IMG/VR virus record: IMGVR_UViG_2548876852_000010
Direction: 5' to 3' (one strand)
Origin: a virus
Lineage: Duplodnaviria > Heunggongvirae > Uroviricota > Caudoviricetes
DNA length: 7,658 nucleotides
Shown piece after piece: positions 1-6,664 of the stretch. Position numbers and translations under genes: made by a program. Within the stretch, counting starts at the first letter, position 1. Every line of letters starts with the position of its first letter. The notes beneath the pieces are model-generated. The model was not told where the DNA came from. It saw nothing but the letters and a program-made list of their open reading frames with translations, and made no database searches.

Positions 1-42
1 GATGACGATCAGGGCGATTAACATCGCCTTTTGCTGCTTCAT
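1..42 (-). CDS. hok: Hok/Gef-family type I toxin, first 14 codons only (CDS continues past the window start)
   Basis: Reverse complement of 1..42 is ATG AAG CAG CAA AAG GCG ATG TTA ATC GCC CTG ATC GTC ATC = MKQQKAMLIALIVI, the characteristic N-terminus and start of the single TM helix of Hok/Gef/RelF-type toxins. It is preceded by the typical leader ...gaaaggcaaggagaagcaggct ATG with SD GGAG. Confidence 0.75.
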   Translation of the reverse strand, partial: MKQQKAMLIALIVI

Positions 43-99
43 AGCCTGCTTCTCCTTGCCTTTCGGCACGTAAGAGGCTAACCTAGATTTGCCGTTCAT
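1..99 (-). CDS. mok: mok-like upstream reading frame, in frame with and overlapping hok (translational coupler), partial
   Basis: ATG at 99..97 (minus) opens MNGKSRLASYVPKGKEKQA, which runs in frame into the hok ATG at 42. This is the same arrangement as chromosomal mok/hok pairs, where mok is an N-terminal extension. Confidence 0.45.
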   Translation of the reverse strand, partial: MNGKSRLASYVPKGKEKQAMKQQKAMLIALIVI

Positions 100-170
100 A
101 GATTGAGCCTCAGATTAATGTTAAGCGTCTTGCAGGACGCGTAATGTTAACTGGGGCTTTTCTCTATCTG
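91..170 (+). ncRNA. sok: Candidate Sok-like antisense RNA complementary to the mok translation-initiation region
   Basis: Plus-strand -35 TTGCCT (56..61), 17-bp spacer, -10 TAACCT (79..84), giving a start near 91. The transcript would be antisense to the mok start at 97..99. It contains an inner hairpin GCGTC-ttgcag-GACGC and an outer CCTCAG/CTGGGG stem followed by CTTTTCTC. Boundaries are approximate. Confidence 0.3.
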
Positions 171-217
171 CCTTTGGTGTTCATGCCTGAGACAGATAGC
201 CTCAAGCACCCGCAGCC

Positions 218-246: not shown

Positions 247-654
247 TATGAAATCAGTCAGAAAGGCGATCCATAAGAACAACAGCAAGGCAATAAATTG
301 CCATTACAGCAGCAATAGCCAGCGCACATTTGAGAACCAGCACCACAACCTCCTGTATTGGACGTACACCAGTCCTGATAAATATGAGGCTGTCTCGTCA
401 GTGATTCAATACAACTATTGGGTATAGTTTCTGTGATTTTGTTCTGTAGAAATGGAACATAATAACCTGTCACCACCAGCACTTCTTTAAATACGCCAAG
501 TCCGACGCAAGCTAACCTTCTAGCCCGCTTTGAGCGAAGAACGGACTGAGTAATTCAGGCCGTTAGCGACACTATGACATCATTAGCAACCAACTAGGAG
601 TTGGTAATAGATGAGTTAATTAATTGATTAAAAACCGACGATTTTACTAGATTA

Positions 655-684
655 CGGGAAGAAGAAAGGCCGCTGGTACGGCCT
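655..684 (-). terminator. Intrinsic terminator downstream of the small ORF 710..907
   Basis: Minus-strand hairpin AGGCCG-taccag-CGGCCT (667..684) followed by TTTCTTCTTCCC, sitting 26 nt past the ORF stop. Confidence 0.4.
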
Positions 685-709
685 CCCAGAGACTAGTCTA
701 TTGTTATGC

Positions 710-907
710 TTAGAAACGCTTTTCTATCTCTTTTTCTCTTTCGTTTATTGCATCGTCAATGATTTTTTTTGCTGAATTAATTTGTGGTGTTTTTTCTGGT
801 AATACATCTTCAAGATCTTTGGCAATTTTCTTTAATTTATCGATTTCTTTAGTTAAATCAGTTACAGATTTATCCGCTATTGACTTTGTCATTTTTCCAT
901 ATTCCAT
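710..907 (-). CDS. Small hypothetical protein (60-65 aa), lysine/glutamate-rich and predicted helical, in an AT-rich block
   Basis: Open frame with ATG at 907 (alternative ATG at 892 with a weak GGA upstream), TAA at 710..712 and its own hairpin terminator. No strong SD and no recognisable family, so the coding status is uncertain. Confidence 0.35.
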   Translation of the reverse strand: MEYGKMTKSIADKSVTDLTKEIDKLKKIAKDLEDVLPEKTPQINSAKKIIDDAINEREKEIEKRF

Positions 908-1080
908 TCAATTTATTTATCAATCAGTTACCCGTAAACCTTATCATGGATTCCAATTATCGACAGCTGGGATTTTTACTTTCTTGATCTGCCCCAGGCG
1001 AATGACATATCCCCATTAACCAATGTCCGCTCCTAGCACTTAGTAGACATTAATAGATTGTAAGCGTTCCCGTCATGTAG

Positions 1081-1461
1081 CGGTCACCGATTGGTGATGA
1101 ATTGAAGCGGATCATTGATGAAAGTCGCAATAACGTGGCCAGCCCATTTATCGTTCACCAGATCCCGGAACGGCAGGTTAAACGCAGCAAAGAAGTTTCT
1201 CATCCCACTCAAGTTGCACCAGACTATTTGAGTCGGTCGTTTTCAGCTACGCGTGACAAGCTGGGTTTATATGACAAACGGCCGATGGATGAAAGGCCAA
1301 CCTTTCACGAAATTCGCGCCTTAGCAGCACATCTTTTTGATCAGCAGGGCATCGATCCACAAGGACGAATGGCACACAGCGATGCGAAATCAACTAAAAT
1401 CTACACGCAAAACCATATCGACTGGGTTGTAGTTCCACATGGAGAAATTAAAGCCAGCTAG
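1081..1461 (+). pseudogene. int: 5'-truncated lambda-family tyrosine integrase (C-terminal catalytic fragment only)
   Basis: The frame opens right after an in-frame TAG at 1078..1080, and the first start-like codon is TTG at 1102. The translation ends ...PTFHEIRALAAHLFDQQGIDPQGRMAHSDAKSTKIYTQNHIDWVVVPHGEIKAS, mirroring the lambda Int C-terminus (PTFHELRSLSARLY...HLLGH...Y...IEIK), including the catalytic Tyr region. No integrase-like sequence is found in any frame upstream of 1080. Confidence 0.7.
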
Positions 1462-1555
1462 CACCAAGTAAGGCATAGAATTTTATTAACCAAGGAGCAT
1501 ATGACCAGTAATTAATTCTTACCGGAAAGTTAGCCCTGCTAAAATTAATATTAAC

Positions 1556-1591
1556 AAATAAAAAAATAGGGGCAAATATTTATATTTGCCC
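1556..1591 (-). terminator. Rho-independent terminator closing the SMODS-SLATT operon
   Basis: Perfect 10-bp inverted repeat GGGCAAATAT (1570..1579) / ATATTTGCCC (1582..1591) with a 2-nt loop. On the minus strand it is followed by C-TATTTTTTTATTT (complement of 1556..1569), 12 nt after the SLATT stop at 1603. Confidence 0.6.
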
Positions 1592-1602
1592 TCGCAACAT
1601 AT

Positions 1603-2184
1603 TTATCTTCTTTTCAGTTCCTTGGGAAGAAAAGCATCTATTTCTTCTTCAGAAAATGTTAAATCTTCTTTGTTTTTTAATGCGTCCTGTGCTTTTTTAT
1701 AAGCTTCAAATGTTGTACTAGGAGAGCCTGAATACACTGAATGTAAACTCTCGAGTAACGAATCCCGCTCTGACTGCAATTGCTCGATTGGTTTTTCACC
1801 CATTGCTAAGTCTGTAAGCAATGATAAATACTTTTCTCGGATTAACCAGATCTCATTTGCAGCCTGCTTATGTTTTTGCGCCAACTCACCAAGGTCATAA
1901 TCTTTGGTATAAGCGTTAAGAATGAGAAGCAGTGTTGAAACAACAATCCCAACCCCCGTGCCTACTTCACCCGCGCCGAAAAAAGTTGCTAGAAAGCCTC
2001 CAGTAGTTAAGGCGGAGAGAATTATTTGCCAAAACTTTATAGAAGATAGTCGAGATAGGAGAATGTCTGAGCATTTTTCATGCGTCTTATGTGAGTAAAC
2101 GACCCGACCATAACACTCTCTGATCTGCCCTTCTAAAACCCTTCTAGATTCAGGTGTATCCTTAGTCTGGAAATGTTGATCCAT
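1603..2184 (-). CDS. SLATT-like 2-TM membrane effector (predicted partner of the upstream nucleotidyltransferase)
   Basis: The ORF spans 1603..2241. The preferred start is ATG 2184..2182, preceded by GGGAG (aaatggcGGGAGattt ATG), whereas the ATG at 2241 has no SD. Two adjacent hydrophobic helices (FWQIILSALTTGGFLATFF and GVGIVVSTLLLILNAY) are flanked by amphipathic helices with conserved-looking H/Y/W positions (VVYSHKTHEK ... AQKHKQAANEIWLIREKYL), which is SLATT-like architecture. It overlaps the upstream gene by 23 nt. Confidence 0.8.
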   Translation of the reverse strand: MDQHFQTKDTPESRRVLEGQIRECYGRVVYSHKTHEKCSDILLSRLSSIKFWQIILSALTTGGFLATFFGAGEVGTGVGIVVSTLLLILNAYTKDYDLGELAQKHKQAANEIWLIREKYLSLLTDLAMGEKPIEQLQSERDSLLESLHSVYSGSPSTTFEAYKKAQDALKNKEDLTFSEEEIDAFLPKELKRR

Positions 2185-3043
2185 AAATCTCCCGCCATTT
2201 TTGCTTAGCCGACCATTCGCGTTTTGGGGTCGCCATTTCATGCTCTATAGCTTCGAGTGAAATGTTATAGCACCGTTTTGCTTTATATTGGAAAAGCCCT
2301 TTACCATAGACATACTGACCACTTCCTGGCGCTTTCCAATACTCCTTACTCGTATCTTGATCAGCCATCCATTTGAAGAAATCACGACTCATGAAATCGT
2401 AGTAAAGATACGACTTATCTCTATGCGCCCAATTTTCAATGAATTGATACGCAAGCGTATCAATGAGTAAACCACTTATAGGTACATCCCATTTACGCTT
2501 CCAAGCTCTTGCCATTCTACAAAGTTGCACCAAATTGTTATTGGTAATGTTATTTCTTAACCTCATTGCAGAAATTTCTGGCTTTGGATTTGTAATCCTC
2601 CAACGGCCACCACCGTTCGCATCAGGAAATGTGTAACTATCACTAACATTGAGGAAAGCTGGAACGACTTCAAATGTAATTCCATCATTGAACGGTACAA
2701 GGATCACTTGACCGTCACCTCTAATACTAGTGGTAGCATAGGTTTTTTCAATAGATCTCTTAACCGCTTGAAGCAATGCTGACTGCCCATTTCCTAAGTA
2801 GCTATTGTATTTTTGATACTCGGAATATGGTAGCTGAAAAATCATATCCAGATCGCTCAAGCCTTGCGTAGCTGTGTTCCGACCATATGATCCAACGTAG
2901 AGACTATGAGAAGTATCAGAACTGCTATCCCAAAAATCCGTATTTAAACGCTTCGTTATATTCCTATATCTAGTTGAAATTGTTCCACCATCTTTTACAG
3001 TAAGATTGGAGCAAAATCCGCAAAACCACTCAGCTAAACCCAT
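2162..3043 (-). CDS. SMODS / CD-NTase-like nucleotidyltransferase (cGAS/DncV-like, Pol-beta fold)
   Basis: The track ORF 2162..3049 begins at TTG. The first ATG is 3043..3041, preceded by AAGGA. Motif GSYGRNTATQGLSDLD (nt 2846..2893) fits the G[SG]-x(9-13)-D-h-D nucleotidyltransferase signature, followed by a FEVVPAF strand carrying the likely third acidic residue. The N-terminus (AEWF..F...L.L...RY..I..RLN) is typical of SMODS domains. Stop TAA at 2162..2164. Confidence 0.8.
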   Translation of the reverse strand: MGLAEWFCGFCSNLTVKDGGTISTRYRNITKRLNTDFWDSSSDTSHSLYVGSYGRNTATQGLSDLDMIFQLPYSEYQKYNSYLGNGQSALLQAVKRSIEKTYATTSIRGDGQVILVPFNDGITFEVVPAFLNVSDSYTFPDANGGGRWRITNPKPEISAMRLRNNITNNNLVQLCRMARAWKRKWDVPISGLLIDTLAYQFIENWAHRDKSYLYYDFMSRDFFKWMADQDTSKEYWKAPGSGQYVYGKGLFQYKAKRCYNISLEAIEHEMATPKREWSAKQKWREIYGSTFPD

Positions 3044-3185
3044 GCTCAATTCCTTTTCTAAAATCTAATGAAAAATTCAAGGGCGCATGTTCCATGCATC
3101 ATTGATAACTTTTTTCAGTCAGCTAGAGCAACATAATTGATACTAACTAGCTGTTTCTTCAAGTGAGTAACCTACTTTAGCATCA

Positions 3186-3222
3186 AGGTATTATACCTAC
3201 CAAGCATGGGGAGAAACCACCA
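3186..3222 (-). promoter_or_regulatory. Candidate promoter of the SMODS-SLATT operon
   Basis: Perfect minus-strand -10 TATAAT (3195..3190), but only a weak -35 (GGTTTC, 17 bp upstream). This implies a leader of about 140 nt. The call is tentative. Confidence 0.25.
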
Positions 3223-3357
3223 CTTAAGCCATTGAAGTATATAGAGCAGATTTTGTTGAAAAAGCACTGTTTGTCTATACATATGAATATGTGCTTTTAA
3301 CCAGCAATAGCGCGGCTCTCAGCGTTTTACAAGCAGTGTCATGGGGTGTCGGGGATC

Positions 3358-3385
3358 GGAAGTTCAAATCCTCTCGTGCGACCCA
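3358..3385 (+). other. Orphan tRNA 3'-end fragment (T-arm + acceptor 3' strand + discriminator + CCA), possible att core or integration scar
   Basis: GGAAG-TTCAAAT-CCTCT (T-stem/loop with one mismatch), then CGTGCGA-C-CCA at 3375..3385. No complementary 5' acceptor strand (TCGCACG) or D-arm exists within 100 nt upstream. The T-arm resembles a tRNA-Pro-like GGAGG/CCTCT arm. Confidence 0.35.
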
Positions 3386-3397
3386 AAAGATTATATA

Positions 3398-3424
3398 AAC
3401 CAGCCTGTTATTGCTGGTTTTTTA
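3398..3424. terminator. Hairpin terminator, usable on either strand
   Basis: 7-bp stem AACCAGC (3398..3404) / GCTGGTT (3413..3419) with an 8-nt loop. On the plus strand it is followed by TTTTTT, on the minus strand by TATATAATCTTTT. It sits about 150 nt past the minus-strand replication-module ORF ending at 3577 and 13 nt past the tRNA-like CCA on the plus strand. Confidence 0.5.
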
Positions 3425-3576
3425 TGCCTACCTTCCTGGTAGGGAAGCTATGGGGAATTACTGGGGAATCCCCCCCTTTACCTGCTCCCATTAAACTAAC
3501 ATAGCACGATGTAAGCAACTTCCGCTTCTGGCACAAAGCGGACAACCACGCTAGCTCTACCCTGTGCCACAAAATG

Positions 3577-4035
3577 TCAATTTACATCTGAACTAATGCA
3601 CTTTAATCTCGTCACTTCAAAAAAATACCGAACATCCCCCTGATAAAACGACAATATCCGCTGCATAACTTCGCTTTTACGACACTCAGTACAAATTATA
3701 TTATGACGCCTGTCGTAACGACGTATTTCTCCATCAGGTAATGACCAGATAAGGTCCGGATCAACCGCAGATGGTTTCTTCAGCTTTGCCCTTGAGAGCT
3801 TTTTACGGGCATTTTGCCAGTCCTTACGCGCCTGTTCAGACGGGAATAACCCGTAACCAGAGTTGTATACATCGCCACTGGCAACCAGCTCTCTGGCCAG
3901 AACGCTCATCAGATATCTTGTTGCCCCAGTTTTAGCTTCCAGTTGTCGTAACGTCTCGCGCCCACTCTGGCGTACGAGTTCAAGAACCTGCCCTTTAATT
4001 TTTTCCCGCTCTTCTTGTGTAAAAACTTTTGCCAC
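3577..4035 (-). CDS. Hypothetical protein (152 aa), last gene of the early-right/replication operon
   Basis: GTG start at 4035 preceded by a strong SD (AGGAGG gctt GTG). The N-terminus looks like a helix-turn-helix or winged helix (TGATRYLMSVLARELVASGDVY), and the C-terminal part has a single CxxC (ICTECRK). Family not recognised. Confidence 0.55.
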   Translation of the reverse strand: MAKVFTQEEREKIKGQVLELVRQSGRETLRQLEAKTGATRYLMSVLARELVASGDVYNSGYGLFPSEQARKDWQNARKKLSRAKLKKPSAVDPDLIWSLPDGEIRRYDRRHNIICTECRKSEVMQRILSFYQGDVRYFFEVTRLKCISSDVN

Positions 4036-4075
4036 AAGCCCTCCTGAAAATTACCTCATGACCAGAAATACACAC

Positions 4076-5146
4076 TTACCCCCTGAAGCCCGGTGGAATT
4101 TCGGTATCCGGTTCAGAAATATGATTCACACAACGCTGGTTGTTCGTACCGCTTACCGGGAGCAACCAGGGGTTTTCAAAATTCCGGTCCGGTCCAAAAA
4201 ACGTCGTCGCTCGCTGAACAAATTCCGTTCCCGTTTTCCCGGTAGCCGCCAGGTATCTTGCGTAACGCCTCACACCATCCAGCATGGCCTCTGGTGGCAC
4301 CCCCTCGCGTAATCTGGCCTTCCAGGCACTGAAAGCGGATTTCTTCGGGTTTGCCCCAGCACGCAACGGGTATTCCCGCCAGACCTGTTCGAACACATCC
4401 GGATAATCTACTCGCCCCACAGGCTGCCCGGTGTTTTCCGGGACTACCCGATCGGCTTCCCGCTGAATGGCGGAATCGGCTTCAGGCTGCTGCAGTTGGT
4501 GTGATTGCTCCGGCCTTGCGGTCATCACCTGCTGCACAGCGCCCGAATCGGCTTTCAGCGCATACGCTGAATCGGCTTCCGGTGTCGTGCCTGCTGGCTG
4601 ACCAGGATTGACGGTCTGAACATCCCCTGCCTGGTTCGTGGCGTTTTTTACGCCATGGACCATAGTGTTTTGATCTTCTTGATCTGTATCTTTATCTGTA
4701 TCTTTATCTGTCGTGACTCGTCGTGACATGTGCGTGACATTTCGTGACGCGCCGTGACAATCGCCATTTTGTTCCCGCTTTCTTTCCCTCTCTCGCTGCG
4801 CCCTCTTGCGCTCTGCAGGAGATTTTGCGGTTTGCGAAATATTGCCGTTGTCCTCTTTAAGCACCTGGCGTTTTTCCCATCCAGTGATTAAATCACCATC
4901 AAGTACCCGCCCCTGCATCGTCTGCAAAATTGAATCAATTACCTCTTCTGTCACGTCGAGCGCACTTGCCAAATCTTCTGTCGTGACATCAATGTGACCT
5001 CGCGTGACATTTCGTGACGCGCTCACCAGGAGGTGGATATACACTGCCATCACTGTTGCAATTGGCTGCCCTGACACCCTGGCAATTGTTCGCCACTTAG
5101 GGTCATTTGGCATGTCATGCCATAATCTGAGCCAAGCGTTAGCCAT
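4076..5146 (-). CDS. Prophage replication initiation protein (replisome-organiser-like) with internal iterons
   Basis: The track ORF begins at GTG 5152, but the first ATG at 5146 is preceded by GAGGTG. N-terminus MANAWLRLWHDMPNDPKWRTIARV...YIHLL and a conserved-looking C-terminal block (YPLRAGANPKKSAFSAWKARL...GVRRYARYLAATGKTGTEFVQRATTFFGPD) are typical of lambdoid or cryptic-prophage replication initiators. It sits downstream of the cro/cII analogues, as lambda O does, and contains a low-complexity acidic linker (TDKDTDKDTDQEDQ). Confidence 0.7.
   Translation of the reverse strand: MANAWLRLWHDMPNDPKWRTIARVSGQPIATVMAVYIHLLVSASRNVTRGHIDVTTEDLASALDVTEEVIDSILQTMQGRVLDGDLITGWEKRQVLKEDNGNISQTAKSPAERKRAQRERERKREQNGDCHGASRNVTHMSRRVTTDKDTDKDTDQEDQNTMVHGVKNATNQAGDVQTVNPGQPAGTTPEADSAYALKADSGAVQQVMTARPEQSHQLQQPEADSAIQREADRVVPENTGQPVGRVDYPDVFEQVWREYPLRAGANPKKSAFSAWKARLREGVPPEAMLDGVRRYARYLAATGKTGTEFVQRATTFFGPDRNFENPWLLPVSGTNNQRCVNHISEPDTEIPPGFRG
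4687..4710. repeat. Tandem direct repeat, 12-bp unit TATCTTTATCTG x2 (hexamer TATCT[TG] x4)
   Basis: Exact tandem duplication read directly from the sequence. It encodes the TDKDTDKD linker and abuts iteron cluster 1. Confidence 0.85.
4712..4758. repeat. Iteron cluster 1: five CGTGAC repeats phased at 10-11 bp
   Basis: CGTGAC at 4712, 4722, 4733, 4743 and 4753, about one helical turn apart, inside the replication-initiator CDS. Confidence 0.8.
4982..5018. repeat. Iteron cluster 2: four (C/T)GTGAC repeats phased at 10-11 bp
   Basis: CGTGAC at 4982, 5003 and 5013 and TGTGAC at 4993. The 21-bp string GCGTGACATTTCGTGACGCGC is shared exactly with cluster 1. Confidence 0.8.
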
Positions 5147-5217
5147 ACTCACCTCTTCTGATACCGAATCTTTTTACTCACGAGTTGCCGGAAGCGATTC
5201 GATATGGCTATTGTCAG

Positions 5218-5643
5218 TCAATGTACTGCCACAGCATTTCCTGCCGGGCCACCACGGTTCATCTGATTGAAACCGGCGATTGCCACTGCGACAAAATCAT
5301 CAGCGTCTCTCACCAGTCGCTCCCGCGTCTCCACCAGCTCCCGAAAATAAGCTGAACTGTGGCTGCGCATTCTGGCCACCAGCAAAGGTGGCATTGCCTT
5401 TTCGATCGCTGGTAACAACGCCTGAATTTTTTCAACTGCATCAGGGGTATCTTTCTCTATCCAGCGGAAAATTTTCTGGGTATTGCGAGCCAGGGCTTCC
5501 GGATGGCTGTCGTCGTACAGTTCAGGAAACGTCATACCCAACTCAAAATAAGCCTGGGTTATTCCAGCTGCCGGAACTTTTTCGCCATCAGGACGCGCCC
5601 AGGCATTCATCGCCATGCGGATGTGTTCATGCTTGATTTTCAT
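5218..5643 (-). CDS. YdaT-family protein (CII-like regulator of cryptic and lambdoid prophages)
   Basis: The best start is the internal ATG at 5643, preceded by AAGGGGGG. The product begins MKIKHEHI... and ends ...VAVH, at about 141 aa, matching the length, termini and position (after the cro analogue, before the replication gene) of the Rac YdaT family as I recall it. The upstream extension of the track ORF has no SD. Confidence 0.65.
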   Translation of the reverse strand: MKIKHEHIRMAMNAWARPDGEKVPAAGITQAYFELGMTFPELYDDSHPEALARNTQKIFRWIEKDTPDAVEKIQALLPAIEKAMPPLLVARMRSHSSAYFRELVETRERLVRDADDFVAVAIAGFNQMNRGGPAGNAVAVH

Positions 5644-5869
5644 GAATCCCCCCTTGGTTAGAAGGCGGATTATGATCAGAACCGGGAATGACAACCGTCG
5701 GTATGTGTAACTCATATTTGAGCGCCCCGGCAGTGACTGCCTGAATTAGCAACGCCCATTTCCACGGAACCTCTTCCCCCCACATGCTGACTGTGGTTTT
5801 TGACGTTCCTAGAGCTGCGGCTGTTTTAACAACTCCGCCAAAATAGCCTAATACTTCTGATTTTTTCAT
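5627..5869 (-). CDS. Cro/YdaS-like small HTH regulator
   Basis: The best start is ATG at 5869, preceded by GGAG 7 nt upstream. HTH signature YFGGVVKTAAALGTSKTTVSMW. It is divergent from the CI-like gene and overlaps the YdaT-like start by 17 nt. Confidence 0.65.
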   Translation of the reverse strand: MKKSEVLGYFGGVVKTAAALGTSKTTVSMWGEEVPWKWALLIQAVTAGALKYELHIPTVVIPGSDHNPPSNQGGIHENQA

Positions 5870-5897
5870 GAGTCGCTCCATAAAACTGAACGCCAAA

Positions 5898-5927
5898 AGT
5901 TTAATAATCAAAACCAAAGAAAGTCAA
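5898..5927 (-). promoter_or_regulatory. Candidate PR-like promoter for the cro/YdaS - YdaT - rep operon
   Basis: On the minus strand: -35 TTGACT (5927..5922), 18-bp spacer, -10 TAAACT (5903..5898). The -10 hexamer is identical to that of the PL-like promoter at 6707..6712. Confidence 0.35.
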
Positions 5928-5942
5928 GAAACAAAACCATCT

Positions 5943-5962
5943 GTGTTTTAAAATCAAAACAT
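5943..5962. promoter_or_regulatory. Operator-like 20-bp palindrome GTGTTTT-aaaatc-AAAACAT overlapping the CI start codon
   Basis: 7-bp inverted arms with a 6-bp spacer. The architecture is the same as the palindrome at 6665..6684, with arms differing at one position. It overlaps a -10-like TAAAAT (5949..5954) placed 6 nt before the SD-less CI ATG. Confidence 0.45.
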
Positions 5963-6599
5963 GAGCAAGCAAACAATATCTGAACGCATAACCCAACGTA
6001 TGCATGCGCTAAACCTGAAAGGCAAAGACCTTGTCAATGCCACTGGCGCATCAAAAGGCTCCGTAAGTCAATGGATGAACGGTGGAGGAGCGCCGTCCTC
6101 GCGTTACATAAGTTCACTGGCAAAAATATTGAAAGTAAACGAAAATTGGCTTCTTAATGGAGGAGAGTTAAATACAGGTGATTCGCTTGATCTATCTTTA
6201 CCGCCGATAAAAACGGTTCCGCTACTATCACTTCAGCAGGCAGCAAGCTGGAGTGATTATATGAAAAATTCCTCAATAACCTCTTGTGTGCAGCTTGTCG
6301 GAGAAATCCCGGCCAATACCTTTGCAGTTGTTCTAGAGAGTGACAGTATGTCAACATCTGGTGGGGGAGTTTCCATCCCAAATGGTTCAACAGTTTTTGT
6401 TGATCCCAATCGAACCGTACAACCAGGAAATATTGTCCTTGCCTTACCCAAAGGGACCACAACACCTGTCATTCGTAAACTGGAGATAGAAGGGCCGGAT
6501 ATTCTTTTAGTCCCCACGAATCCTCGCTACCCTTCAATTATGCTGGATGATCTATCTTGCATATTGGGCGTATGCTTTAAAATTCAACAAGATATTTAA
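5961..6599 (+). CDS. CI-like phage repressor (N-terminal HTH + C-terminal S24 LexA-like autopeptidase domain)
   Basis: ATG at 5961. The HTH region is LKGKDLVNATGASKGSVSQWMNG. The C-terminal domain has the S24 Ser/Lys dyad context (ESDSMS ... VIRKL) and collinear similarity to the lambda CI C-terminus (VFVDPNRTVQPGNIVLALP ... LLVPTNPRYPSIMLDD versus LVDPEQAVEPGDFCIARL ... FLQPLNPQYPMIPCNE). No SD, so possibly leaderless like lambda cI from PRM. Confidence 0.88.
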   Translation: MSKQTISERITQRMHALNLKGKDLVNATGASKGSVSQWMNGGGAPSSRYISSLAKILKVNENWLLNGGELNTGDSLDLSLPPIKTVPLLSLQQAASWSDYMKNSSITSCVQLVGEIPANTFAVVLESDSMSTSGGGVSIPNGSTVFVDPNRTVQPGNIVLALPKGTTTPVIRKLEIEGPDILLVPTNPRYPSIMLDDLSCILGVCFKIQQDI

Positions 6600-6664
6600 C
6601 CGACCTCATCTATTTGATTAACTGTATGCCATCGTGGTGATGGCTTAACAGCTGCCTGCTTAAA

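Follow-up and report, generated by a model that had tools for sequence, protein, structure and literature searches.

The stretch of viral DNA analyzed here (7,658 nucleotides of the Caudoviricetes record IMGVR_UViG_2548876852_000010; hereafter, the window) carries two genes encoding a nucleotidyltransferase of the SMODS family and a membrane protein of the SLATT family, which probably form a compact anti-phage signaling system. Both genes are located on the minus strand, with the nucleotidyltransferase gene upstream (2162..3043, 293 aa) and the membrane protein gene downstream (1603..2184, 193 aa). Their start codons are in-frame ATG triplets, at 3043 within the open reading frame (ORF) 2162..3049 and at 2184 within the ORF 1603..2241. 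A preliminary description of the window, made without database searches, had reported two minus-strand genes overlapping by 23 nucleotides (nt). These coordinates are confirmed by the ORFs and by the RefSeq annotation of an identical locus in Escherichia coli 2013C-4991, whose gene boundaries match exactly and whose products are named “SMODS domain-containing nucleotidyltransferase” (WP_000521772.1) and “SLATT domain-containing protein” (WP_000371964.1). The overlap probably couples translation of the two genes.

The product of the upstream gene was identified as a CD-NTase, i.e. a cGAS/DncV-like nucleotidyltransferase, and is referred to below as the synthase. Its residues 3-166 cover the whole Pfam SMODS profile (PF18144, positions 1-164 of 164; E = 2e-50; 171.6 bits against a cut-off of 26.5), and it matches positions 1-292 of the 293 in the PADLOC model CBASS Cyclase PDLC00786 (E = 5e-144, 477 bits). 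The GS...DLD signature noted in the preliminary description is present as the GS-x(n)-DxD motif GSYGRNTATQGLSDLD (residues 51-66, window positions 2893..2846), and so is the acidic strand FEVVPAF (residues 124-130). Residues G51, S52, D64, D66 and E125 are unchanged across 33 homologues, and the active-site residues align with the GS, DID and third D of the Pseudomonas aeruginosa protein CdnD (PaCdnD). The predicted Pol-beta-type active site (GS / DxD / E) is intact. PaCdnD is also the best match in a profile search of the PDB (6P82/6P8U, E = 3e-12), followed by CdnD from a Cap10 complex (1.5e-5) and then, weakly, by E. cloacae CdnD02, EfCdnE and DncV-like entries. All meaningful sequence and profile matches in the PDB are CD-NTases, and no nucleotidyltransferase of another kind was found there at E values up to 10. 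Neither an AGS-C domain nor any other fused domain was detected in the synthase.

The downstream gene encodes a SLATT_4 protein, the putative effector. The match to Pfam SLATT_4 extends over the full profile (PF18186, positions 1-165 of 165; E = 6e-74; 247.7 bits against a cut-off of 27). It is accompanied by matches to NCBIfam SLATT_4 (NF033632; 150.7 bits, cut-off 55) and, end to end, to the PADLOC model CBASS 2TM Effector PDLC00696 (E = 1e-84). In the searches with SMODS and SLATT profile hidden Markov models that the preliminary description had proposed, both proteins thus scored far above the thresholds. The two tightly spaced transmembrane (TM) helices described earlier are supported by hydropathy: the Kyte-Doolittle average is above 1.4 for windows with their centres at residues 60-63 and 73-84, and a short GAGEVGTG turn separates the two hydrophobic segments. 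The predicted layout comprises an N-terminal cytoplasmic helix, the TM hairpin and a C-terminal helical region. The AlphaFold 2 (AF2) model is all-helical (helices 11-60, 62-70, 73-96, 98-128 and 133-153), with a predicted local distance difference test (pLDDT) value of 71.

Two basic clusters of the effector are invariant. The first consists of R22/R27/H32/K33/H35/K37, and the second, K104/H105/K106/Q107, lies in the C-terminal region within an invariant juxtamembrane stretch, YDLGELAQKHKQ. Situated on cytoplasmic helices beside the hairpin, these clusters are candidates for a ligand-contact site. No solved relative of the effector was found by sequence in the PDB, nor by fold with Foldseek, where the best match to the model of pLDDT 71 had E = 0.14 and belonged to unrelated, generic helical bundles. 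The literature searched contained no solved SLATT-type structure, known ligand or demonstrated mechanism for any SLATT protein.

Both families point to CBASS, a kind of anti-phage system that signals through cyclic oligonucleotides, and an operon made up of a synthase and an effector only, with no accessory gene, belongs to type I. Cap2/Cap3, HORMA/TRIP13 and QueC/TGT/OGG-like families were all absent from a Pfam scan of the ten window ORFs. The RefSeq annotation covering 20 kb at the locus likewise contained no accessory CBASS genes, and none stood beside the pair in two distant genomes. Together with the end-to-end PADLOC matches, this agrees with the minimal type I CBASS suggested in the preliminary description. 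We consider it likely that the locus is a prophage-borne type I CBASS with a SLATT_4 effector, which would act against phages by disrupting the membrane as set out below. Features of the locus and its surroundings are collected in Table 1.

Table 1. Features distinguished in the window (positions counted from the first nucleotide of the window; strand “.”, none assigned).
Feature	Position	Strand	Basis
CD-NTase, SMODS-family cGAS/DncV-like nucleotidyltransferase (synthase), 293 aa	2162..3043	-	Pfam, PADLOC, PDB profile search, invariant catalytic residues
Synthase catalytic residues G51-S52; D64; D66; E125	2893..2888; 2854..2852; 2848..2846; 2671..2669	-	Invariant
SLATT_4 two-TM effector, 193 aa	1603..2184	-	Pfam, NCBIfam, PADLOC, hydropathy
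Effector TM hairpin, about residues 47-71 and 72-93	2046..1972; 1971..1906	-	Hydropathy
Synthase/effector gene overlap, 23 nt	2162..2184	-	Read directly from the sequence
Intrinsic-terminator-like hairpin, GGGCAAATA-TAAA-TATTTGCCC, then T run	1560..1591	-	Terminator scan, RNA fold
Non-coding region upstream of the operon, where its own promoter should lie	3044..3337	-	Sequence reading, promoter scan
Variable cargo slot of the Qin-type prophage, from hok/sok to the DUF977 gene	538..3479	.	Comparison with E. coli VE-T2
Remnant of a tyrosine recombinase, limited to its C-terminal part	1102..1461	+	Pfam Phage_integrase, E = 3e-4, 20.9 bits (below the cut-off of 27.1)
tRNA-Pro 3′ fragment (T arm, 3′ strand of the acceptor, CCA)	3338..3388	+	About 92% identity to the 3′ part of annotated E. 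coli tRNA-Pro genes
Hairpin with plus-strand T run, resembling the sequence downstream of tRNA-Pro	3399..3427	.	RNA fold, -10.6 kcal/mol, z = -3.7
Full-length sok antitoxin RNA of a hokD/sok locus	37..211	-	Rfam RF01794, 110 bits, E = 5e-25

In the mechanism that we propose, the synthase would be held quiet in uninfected cells, as in CBASS generally, until a cue from phage replication switches it on. It would then produce a cyclic di- or trinucleotide from nucleoside triphosphates. This signal may bind the cytoplasmic helices of SLATT_4, with the two invariant basic clusters as the candidate site, and the effector would assemble as an oligomeric pore or channel. Depolarisation or permeabilisation of the inner membrane would follow, and the infected cell would halt growth or die before the release of phage progeny. 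The nucleotide, trigger and pore steps are taken from the established behaviour of CBASS rather than from the window itself, and the caution expressed in the preliminary description about the signal, the trigger and the effector mechanism stands.

The two genes form a widespread unit. A 1.8-kb region including them is found at no less than 99% DNA identity in 47 of 5426 complete E. coli genomes, always in the chromosome, and RefSeq annotates both genes in all 47 carriers. No nucleotide match was found in a collection of sequenced phage genomes. The SLATT gene occurs on 11 IMG/VR viral contigs; eight of these copies show 98-100% protein identity to that of the window and so probably represent the same E. 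coli prophage region. When one genome per species was scanned, 298 were found to encode a relative of the synthase, and the best 80 of the 298 were analyzed. These 80 share 66-86% protein identity with the window protein and come from more than 12 phyla (Pseudomonadota, Planctomycetota, Chloroflexota, Bacteroidota, Nitrospirota, Cyanobacteria, Acidobacteriota, Verrucomicrobiota, Gemmatimonadota, Poribacteria, Bacillota and others). SLATT_4 is also present in 75 of the 80 loci, with an identical 23-nt overlap in 58 of the 75. Synonymous sites are saturated relative to the window (median proportion of synonymous differences, pS, 0.88), while the synthase shows a nonsynonymous divergence (dN) of only about 0.2 and the effector one of 0.25, which indicates strong purifying selection over deep divergence and not merely recent transfer. 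Judged by these comparisons, the two genes are conserved as one unit across many phyla under strong purifying selection. In two distant genomes from other phyla the pair is flanked by insertion sequence (IS) elements and by PIN toxin and restriction-modification genes.

The conservation of both proteins (66-86% identity and mostly equal lengths) is unusually high for a defence system.

Two kinds of natural variants bear on how the synthase and the effector cooperate. Three betaproteobacterial genomes, from Limnohabitans and relatives, encode a synthase with about 75% identity to that of the window, preceded by an upstream SLATT_6 gene (L028 3304-3909, L031 3255-3884, L036 3271-3894; Pfam E about 1e-62), and no SLATT_4 gene follows downstream. 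This exchange of SLATT families on nearly the same synthase suggests that both families read the same signal. In E. coli AUSMDU00014361 (L006 2500-4357), the synthase gene is interrupted by IS1203, so that an N-terminal fragment of 213 aa remains, and the downstream SLATT gene is intact and identical to that of the window. A truncated synthase beside an intact effector agrees with a role of the synthase in activating, not restraining, the effector.

The latter allele is relevant to an inverse “guard” mode of signaling, to which we assign a low probability. Here a constitutively produced nucleotide or oligonucleotide would keep SLATT_4 closed, and removal of this signal by phage nucleases, sponges or phosphodiesterases would open the channel. 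Guard systems pairing a nucleotidyltransferase with a membrane channel do exist, namely Hailong HalB/HalA (PMC13434031) and Panoptes (PMC12657230), and the authors of the DRT10 study raise the possibility that a nucleic-acid product neutralises SLATT in uninfected cells (PMC12632851). The strong conservation of both proteins would also suit a sensor that is not following rapidly evolving phage proteins. If such signaling did operate, 66-86% identity of both proteins across more than 12 phyla, alongside saturated synonymous sites, would be explained, since no variable phage proteins would have to be followed, and a first mechanism would be at hand for a large class of SLATT effectors. Against this, a truncated synthase next to an intact effector would be lethal if the synthase were an antitoxin, unless the insertion is polar. 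In addition, PDB sequence, profile and fold searches returned CD-NTases only and nothing described as Hailong (HalA/HalB entries were not confirmed by name), and the SLATT model matched no solved membrane protein.

In Hailong, HalB constitutively produces tyrosine-primed oligo-dA, which represses HalA, a DNA-gated ion channel (PMC13434031). It is a two-gene phage defence operon composed of a nucleotidyltransferase and a membrane channel protein, as is predicted for the window pair, but the enzymes differ in type (HalB-type versus SMODS/CD-NTase). The priming tyrosine of HalB is C-terminal and conserved, whereas many homologues have F in place of Y287, the sole tyrosine among the last nine residues of the window synthase, and this speaks against priming of the HalB kind. 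A HalA-type tetrameric channel with a DNA-binding crown domain was not found: the effector has no PDB sequence match, and its best fold match has E = 0.14 (HalA entries were not looked up by name). Membership in Hailong, whose features we took from reviews, was rejected on the combined grounds that the PDB returned only CD-NTases, that the SLATT model had no match and that Y287 is not conserved. A Panoptes-like system was also rejected: going by a text search of the Panoptes papers, which make no mention of SLATT, the effectors there are not SLATT proteins, and no mCpol or DAC domain was present in the Pfam scan of the window.

Several points weigh against the assignment of the pair as an active CBASS. 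The first concerns expression. The preliminary description had placed the operon between a candidate promoter and a strong terminator. The terminator part of this claim holds: a 9-bp hairpin (1591..1570) begins 11 nt past the effector stop codon and folds with a free energy of -11.8 kcal/mol (z = -2.8 against shuffled sequences). Terminator-like sites in the region are no more frequent than expected (1 found, 1.5 expected), so it is the position of this hairpin that supports its role. The candidate promoter did not stand out, as a scan of 1400..3600 gave 7 promoter-like sites against 6.3 expected by chance, the best with at most 9 of 12 matches. The closest match to the consensus is TAGACA-16-CAAAAT (3277..3250), and a perfect TATAAT at about 3197..3192 lacks a good -35 element. 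With a promoter scan at chance level and a defective host prophage, expression of the predicted operon is unproven.

Further counter-evidence comes from the proteins themselves. The synthase scores 116.9 bits with the NCBIfam model CBASS_cyclase_b (NF041117), below its equivalog cut-off of 200 bits, and therefore would not count, under the strict rule of NCBI, as an “equivalog” of the modelled cyclases. With another cyclase model, NF041116, it scores 28.6 bits (cut-off 200). By these scores it is a superfamily member outside two narrowly trained models. Sequence and profile searches of the PDB gave CD-NTases only, but the support from the fold is weak and depends on the signal in the sequence: the synthase has a poor AlphaFold model (pLDDT 53) whose C-terminal lobe is unreliable, and Foldseek ranks CdnD, CdnE, CdnC, CdnG, DncV and cGAS first at TM-scores of only about 0.3. 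The quality of the model reflects its shallow input alignment, which held only close homologues (33 sequences, 78-96% identical to the window protein). For the effector, no recognisable nucleotide-binding domain (SAVED, STING or beta-barrel) was found in its 193 aa, which leaves the reading of a signal unexplained. The literature searched included no paper giving a mechanism for a SLATT_4 effector and none testing this exact operon. Pore or channel formation and membrane disruption by SLATT proteins are only predicted (PMC12632851), and the SLATT mechanism is still called predicted or speculative in papers of 2025-2026. Finally, the IS1203 allele was seen in one strain only, and a polar effect of the insertion on the effector gene could account for it.

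The locus is part of a defective E. coli prophage, lambdoid and of the Qin type. The window and the RefSeq annotation surrounding it include hok/sok, DUF977, a replisome-organiser-like gene, YdaT, Cro, a CI-like repressor, dicB and ydfD. The preliminary description had seen the operon as wedged between an integrase remnant and a prophage replication module, and this is the arrangement found, with the recombinase remnant on one side and DUF977, YdaT, Cro and the CI-like repressor on the other. The higher AT content ascribed to the operon was also confirmed. The GC content of the two-gene span is 40% (39% for 1556..3222), compared with 50% for the replication genes (3577..5917). As the other flanks have 42-44% GC, the contrast is real but modest.

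Comparison with the same prophage in E. coli VE-T2 defined a variable slot, since similarity to that strain stops at position 537 and restarts at 3480. In the window this slot contains a 65-aa ORF, the recombinase remnant, the CBASS pair and the tRNA-Pro fragment. Its counterpart in VE-T2 (L004 1038-3200) carries two unrelated hypothetical genes with weak GNAT and HEPN_RES_NTD1 matches, and that of E. coli EC23HZZ201 (L005 about 913-2296) a SIR2-family gene. In further strains, the genes under the match are HEPN, SMEK with a methyltransferase, DUF4209, DUF5677 and a 3′-5′ exoribonuclease. The slot looks like a prophage defence hotspot, and the presence of SIR2, HEPN and other cargo in the same position elsewhere provides context for a defensive role of the pair. 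The 65-aa ORF (710-907, minus strand; about 32% GC, many charged residues) gave only chance-level family matches; RefSeq annotates it as a 60-aa “hypothetical protein” (WP_000167380.1).

The recombinase remnant is labelled in RefSeq as “recombinase; frameshifted; incomplete; missing N-terminus”, and a nearby IS4-family transposase gene is a pseudogene. No complete tRNA was found near the operon with ARAGORN. The match of the tRNA-Pro fragment to the tRNA-Pro locus reaches position 3423 in some genomes, at about 81% identity, and the fragment is probably an attachment (att) site remnant of the integrative element that brought the cassette. Together with the truncated recombinase, it suggests arrival on a tRNA-Pro-integrating element, of which, now decayed and originally small, we infer the cassette to be the cargo. 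Direct repeats flanking the cassette as att sites were searched for, and only short, chance-level repeats were found. The second hairpin (3399..3427) stands between the upstream region of the operon and the DUF977 gene and could insulate the cassette from DUF977 read-through.

Such a mobile setting would also suit a module serving mainly the mobile element that carries it, either for addiction or stabilisation or as a prophage-serving device for superinfection exclusion or lysis timing, and not general abortive infection. The pair resides on mobile DNA, with hok/sok (Rfam sok, E = 5e-25) and a toxin gene of the YdaT family as neighbours. A recombinase remnant and an att-like tRNA-Pro fragment accompany it, and in other phyla it has IS elements and PIN toxins at its flanks; a small two-TM protein is, moreover, superficially holin-like. 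We regard this explanation as improbable. Although the prophage is defective, the two genes have remained intact, with a DNA identity of at least 99% in 47 genomes. Across more than 12 phyla the pair is chromosomal and occurs in unrelated contexts, beside restriction-modification and toxin genes and not lysis cassettes. The families matched are those of CBASS, whose demonstrated role is anti-phage, and the status of prophage cargo is compatible with defence.

The decay of the surrounding prophage also raises the question of whether the pair is a silent or decaying remnant, with intact frames but no expression or activity. The frameshifted and truncated recombinase, the transposase pseudogene, the chance-level promoter-like sites and the IS in the synthase gene of one strain are all in keeping with this. 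It is nevertheless very improbable in our judgement, as the two ORFs have their full length and keep the invariant catalytic and juxtamembrane residues, the region has a DNA identity of 99% or more in 47 genomes of E. coli, the family is under strong purifying selection, and the terminator-like hairpin and the 23-nt overlap are preserved. Because of the conservation and the distribution across phyla, both the addiction or prophage-serving role and the silent remnant are less likely than guard signaling.

Other features of the prophage were recorded in the course of annotation. Most of the hokD coding sequence lies beyond the left edge of the window, and sok was the sole known RNA family in the Rfam scan near the operon. 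The YdaT-family “toxin” gene (5218-5715, minus strand; Pfam E = 8e-10) overlaps the end of the P22-Cro-like gene (5627-5917, minus strand), which is the usual arrangement of Rac/Qin immunity regions and lies outside the CBASS unit. The CI-like repressor is encoded by an unbroken ORF of 212 aa (5961-6599, plus strand), with a helix-turn-helix domain at the N terminus (HTH_3, E = 2e-4) and an S24 peptidase domain at the C terminus. The RefSeq “LexA family protein” corresponds only to its last 112 aa (window 6262-6600), so the annotated start of this gene appears to be too far downstream.

Systems of the kind proposed here are already known from PADLOC models, RefSeq names, published effector classes and experimental precedents. 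As an annotation, the locus therefore matters little: PADLOC-type tools would call it, and RefSeq labels both genes. Its value is that of an experimental handle, being native to E. coli, 1.4 kb long and equipped with a bare synthase that lacks sensor fusions. The tight conservation of the subfamily makes mutational and structural work interpretable, and the locus offers a compact entry point to the mechanism of SLATT effectors and to the signal of this synthase subfamily.

Among solved proteins, PaCdnD of a type III CBASS (6P82, 6P8J, 6P8U) is the closest to the window synthase, with 300 aa, an aligned active site and about 20% identity, at which level its product is not transferable to the window enzyme. 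PaCdnD works with HORMA and Trip13-like regulators, for which there are no genes at the window locus; related HORMA/Trip13 complexes of E. coli CdnC are among the PDB entry titles in the fold search. The PaCdnD system is also said, in work of Ye et al. from 2020, to be paired with a NucC nuclease effector. No such nuclease is present at the window locus.

Membrane-targeting effectors are found in other minimal CBASS operons as well. Cap15 (two TM segments and a beta-barrel) and Cap14 (a TM part and SAVED) cause membrane disruption or ion flux upon signal binding (PMC10402079), and Cap15 operons are also described by Richmond-Buccola et al. (10.1101/2023.05.21.541620). The window SLATT_4 protein differs from both: it has neither SAVED nor a beta-barrel, only helices flanking the TM hairpin, and no detectable sequence or fold relation to solved effectors. 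A SLATT-family two-TM effector also serves a nucleic-acid-synthesising defence enzyme in DRT10, which consists of the UG17 reverse transcriptase, a non-coding RNA (ncRNA) and SLATT_5; this protein is a required effector, the switching of which is open (PMC12632851). The DRT10 enzyme is a reverse transcriptase making tandem-repeat cDNA, and its partner belongs to SLATT_5, not SLATT_4. No ncRNA or reverse transcriptase of the DRT10 kind was found in the window by Pfam and Rfam scans.

The nearest precedents are CBASS operons with SLATT effectors. SLATT4 is listed among the classes of CBASS membrane effectors, and the 1TM, 2TM, S4TM, SLATT4 and SLATT6 membrane proteins together are reported to account for more than 40% of CBASS effectors (PMC12480259). 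The CdnF04-SLATT6 operons of E. coli act on phages from five families, with a restriction of at least 10,000-fold (10.1101/2023.05.21.541620), and a plasmid-borne type I CBASS of Lactococcus with a PF18186 (SLATT_4) effector confers phage resistance (PMC11381338). Like the window pair, the CdnF04/F05-SLATT6 and Lactococcus systems are composed of a CD-NTase and a SLATT two-TM protein of about 190-200 aa, with no accessory genes, and the Lactococcus effector belongs to the same family as that of the window. The difference lies in the synthase. That of Lactococcus has 408 aa and contains an AGS-C sensor domain, and AGS-C is likewise described as fused in the F04/F05 group, whereas the window encodes a bare CD-NTase of 293 aa.

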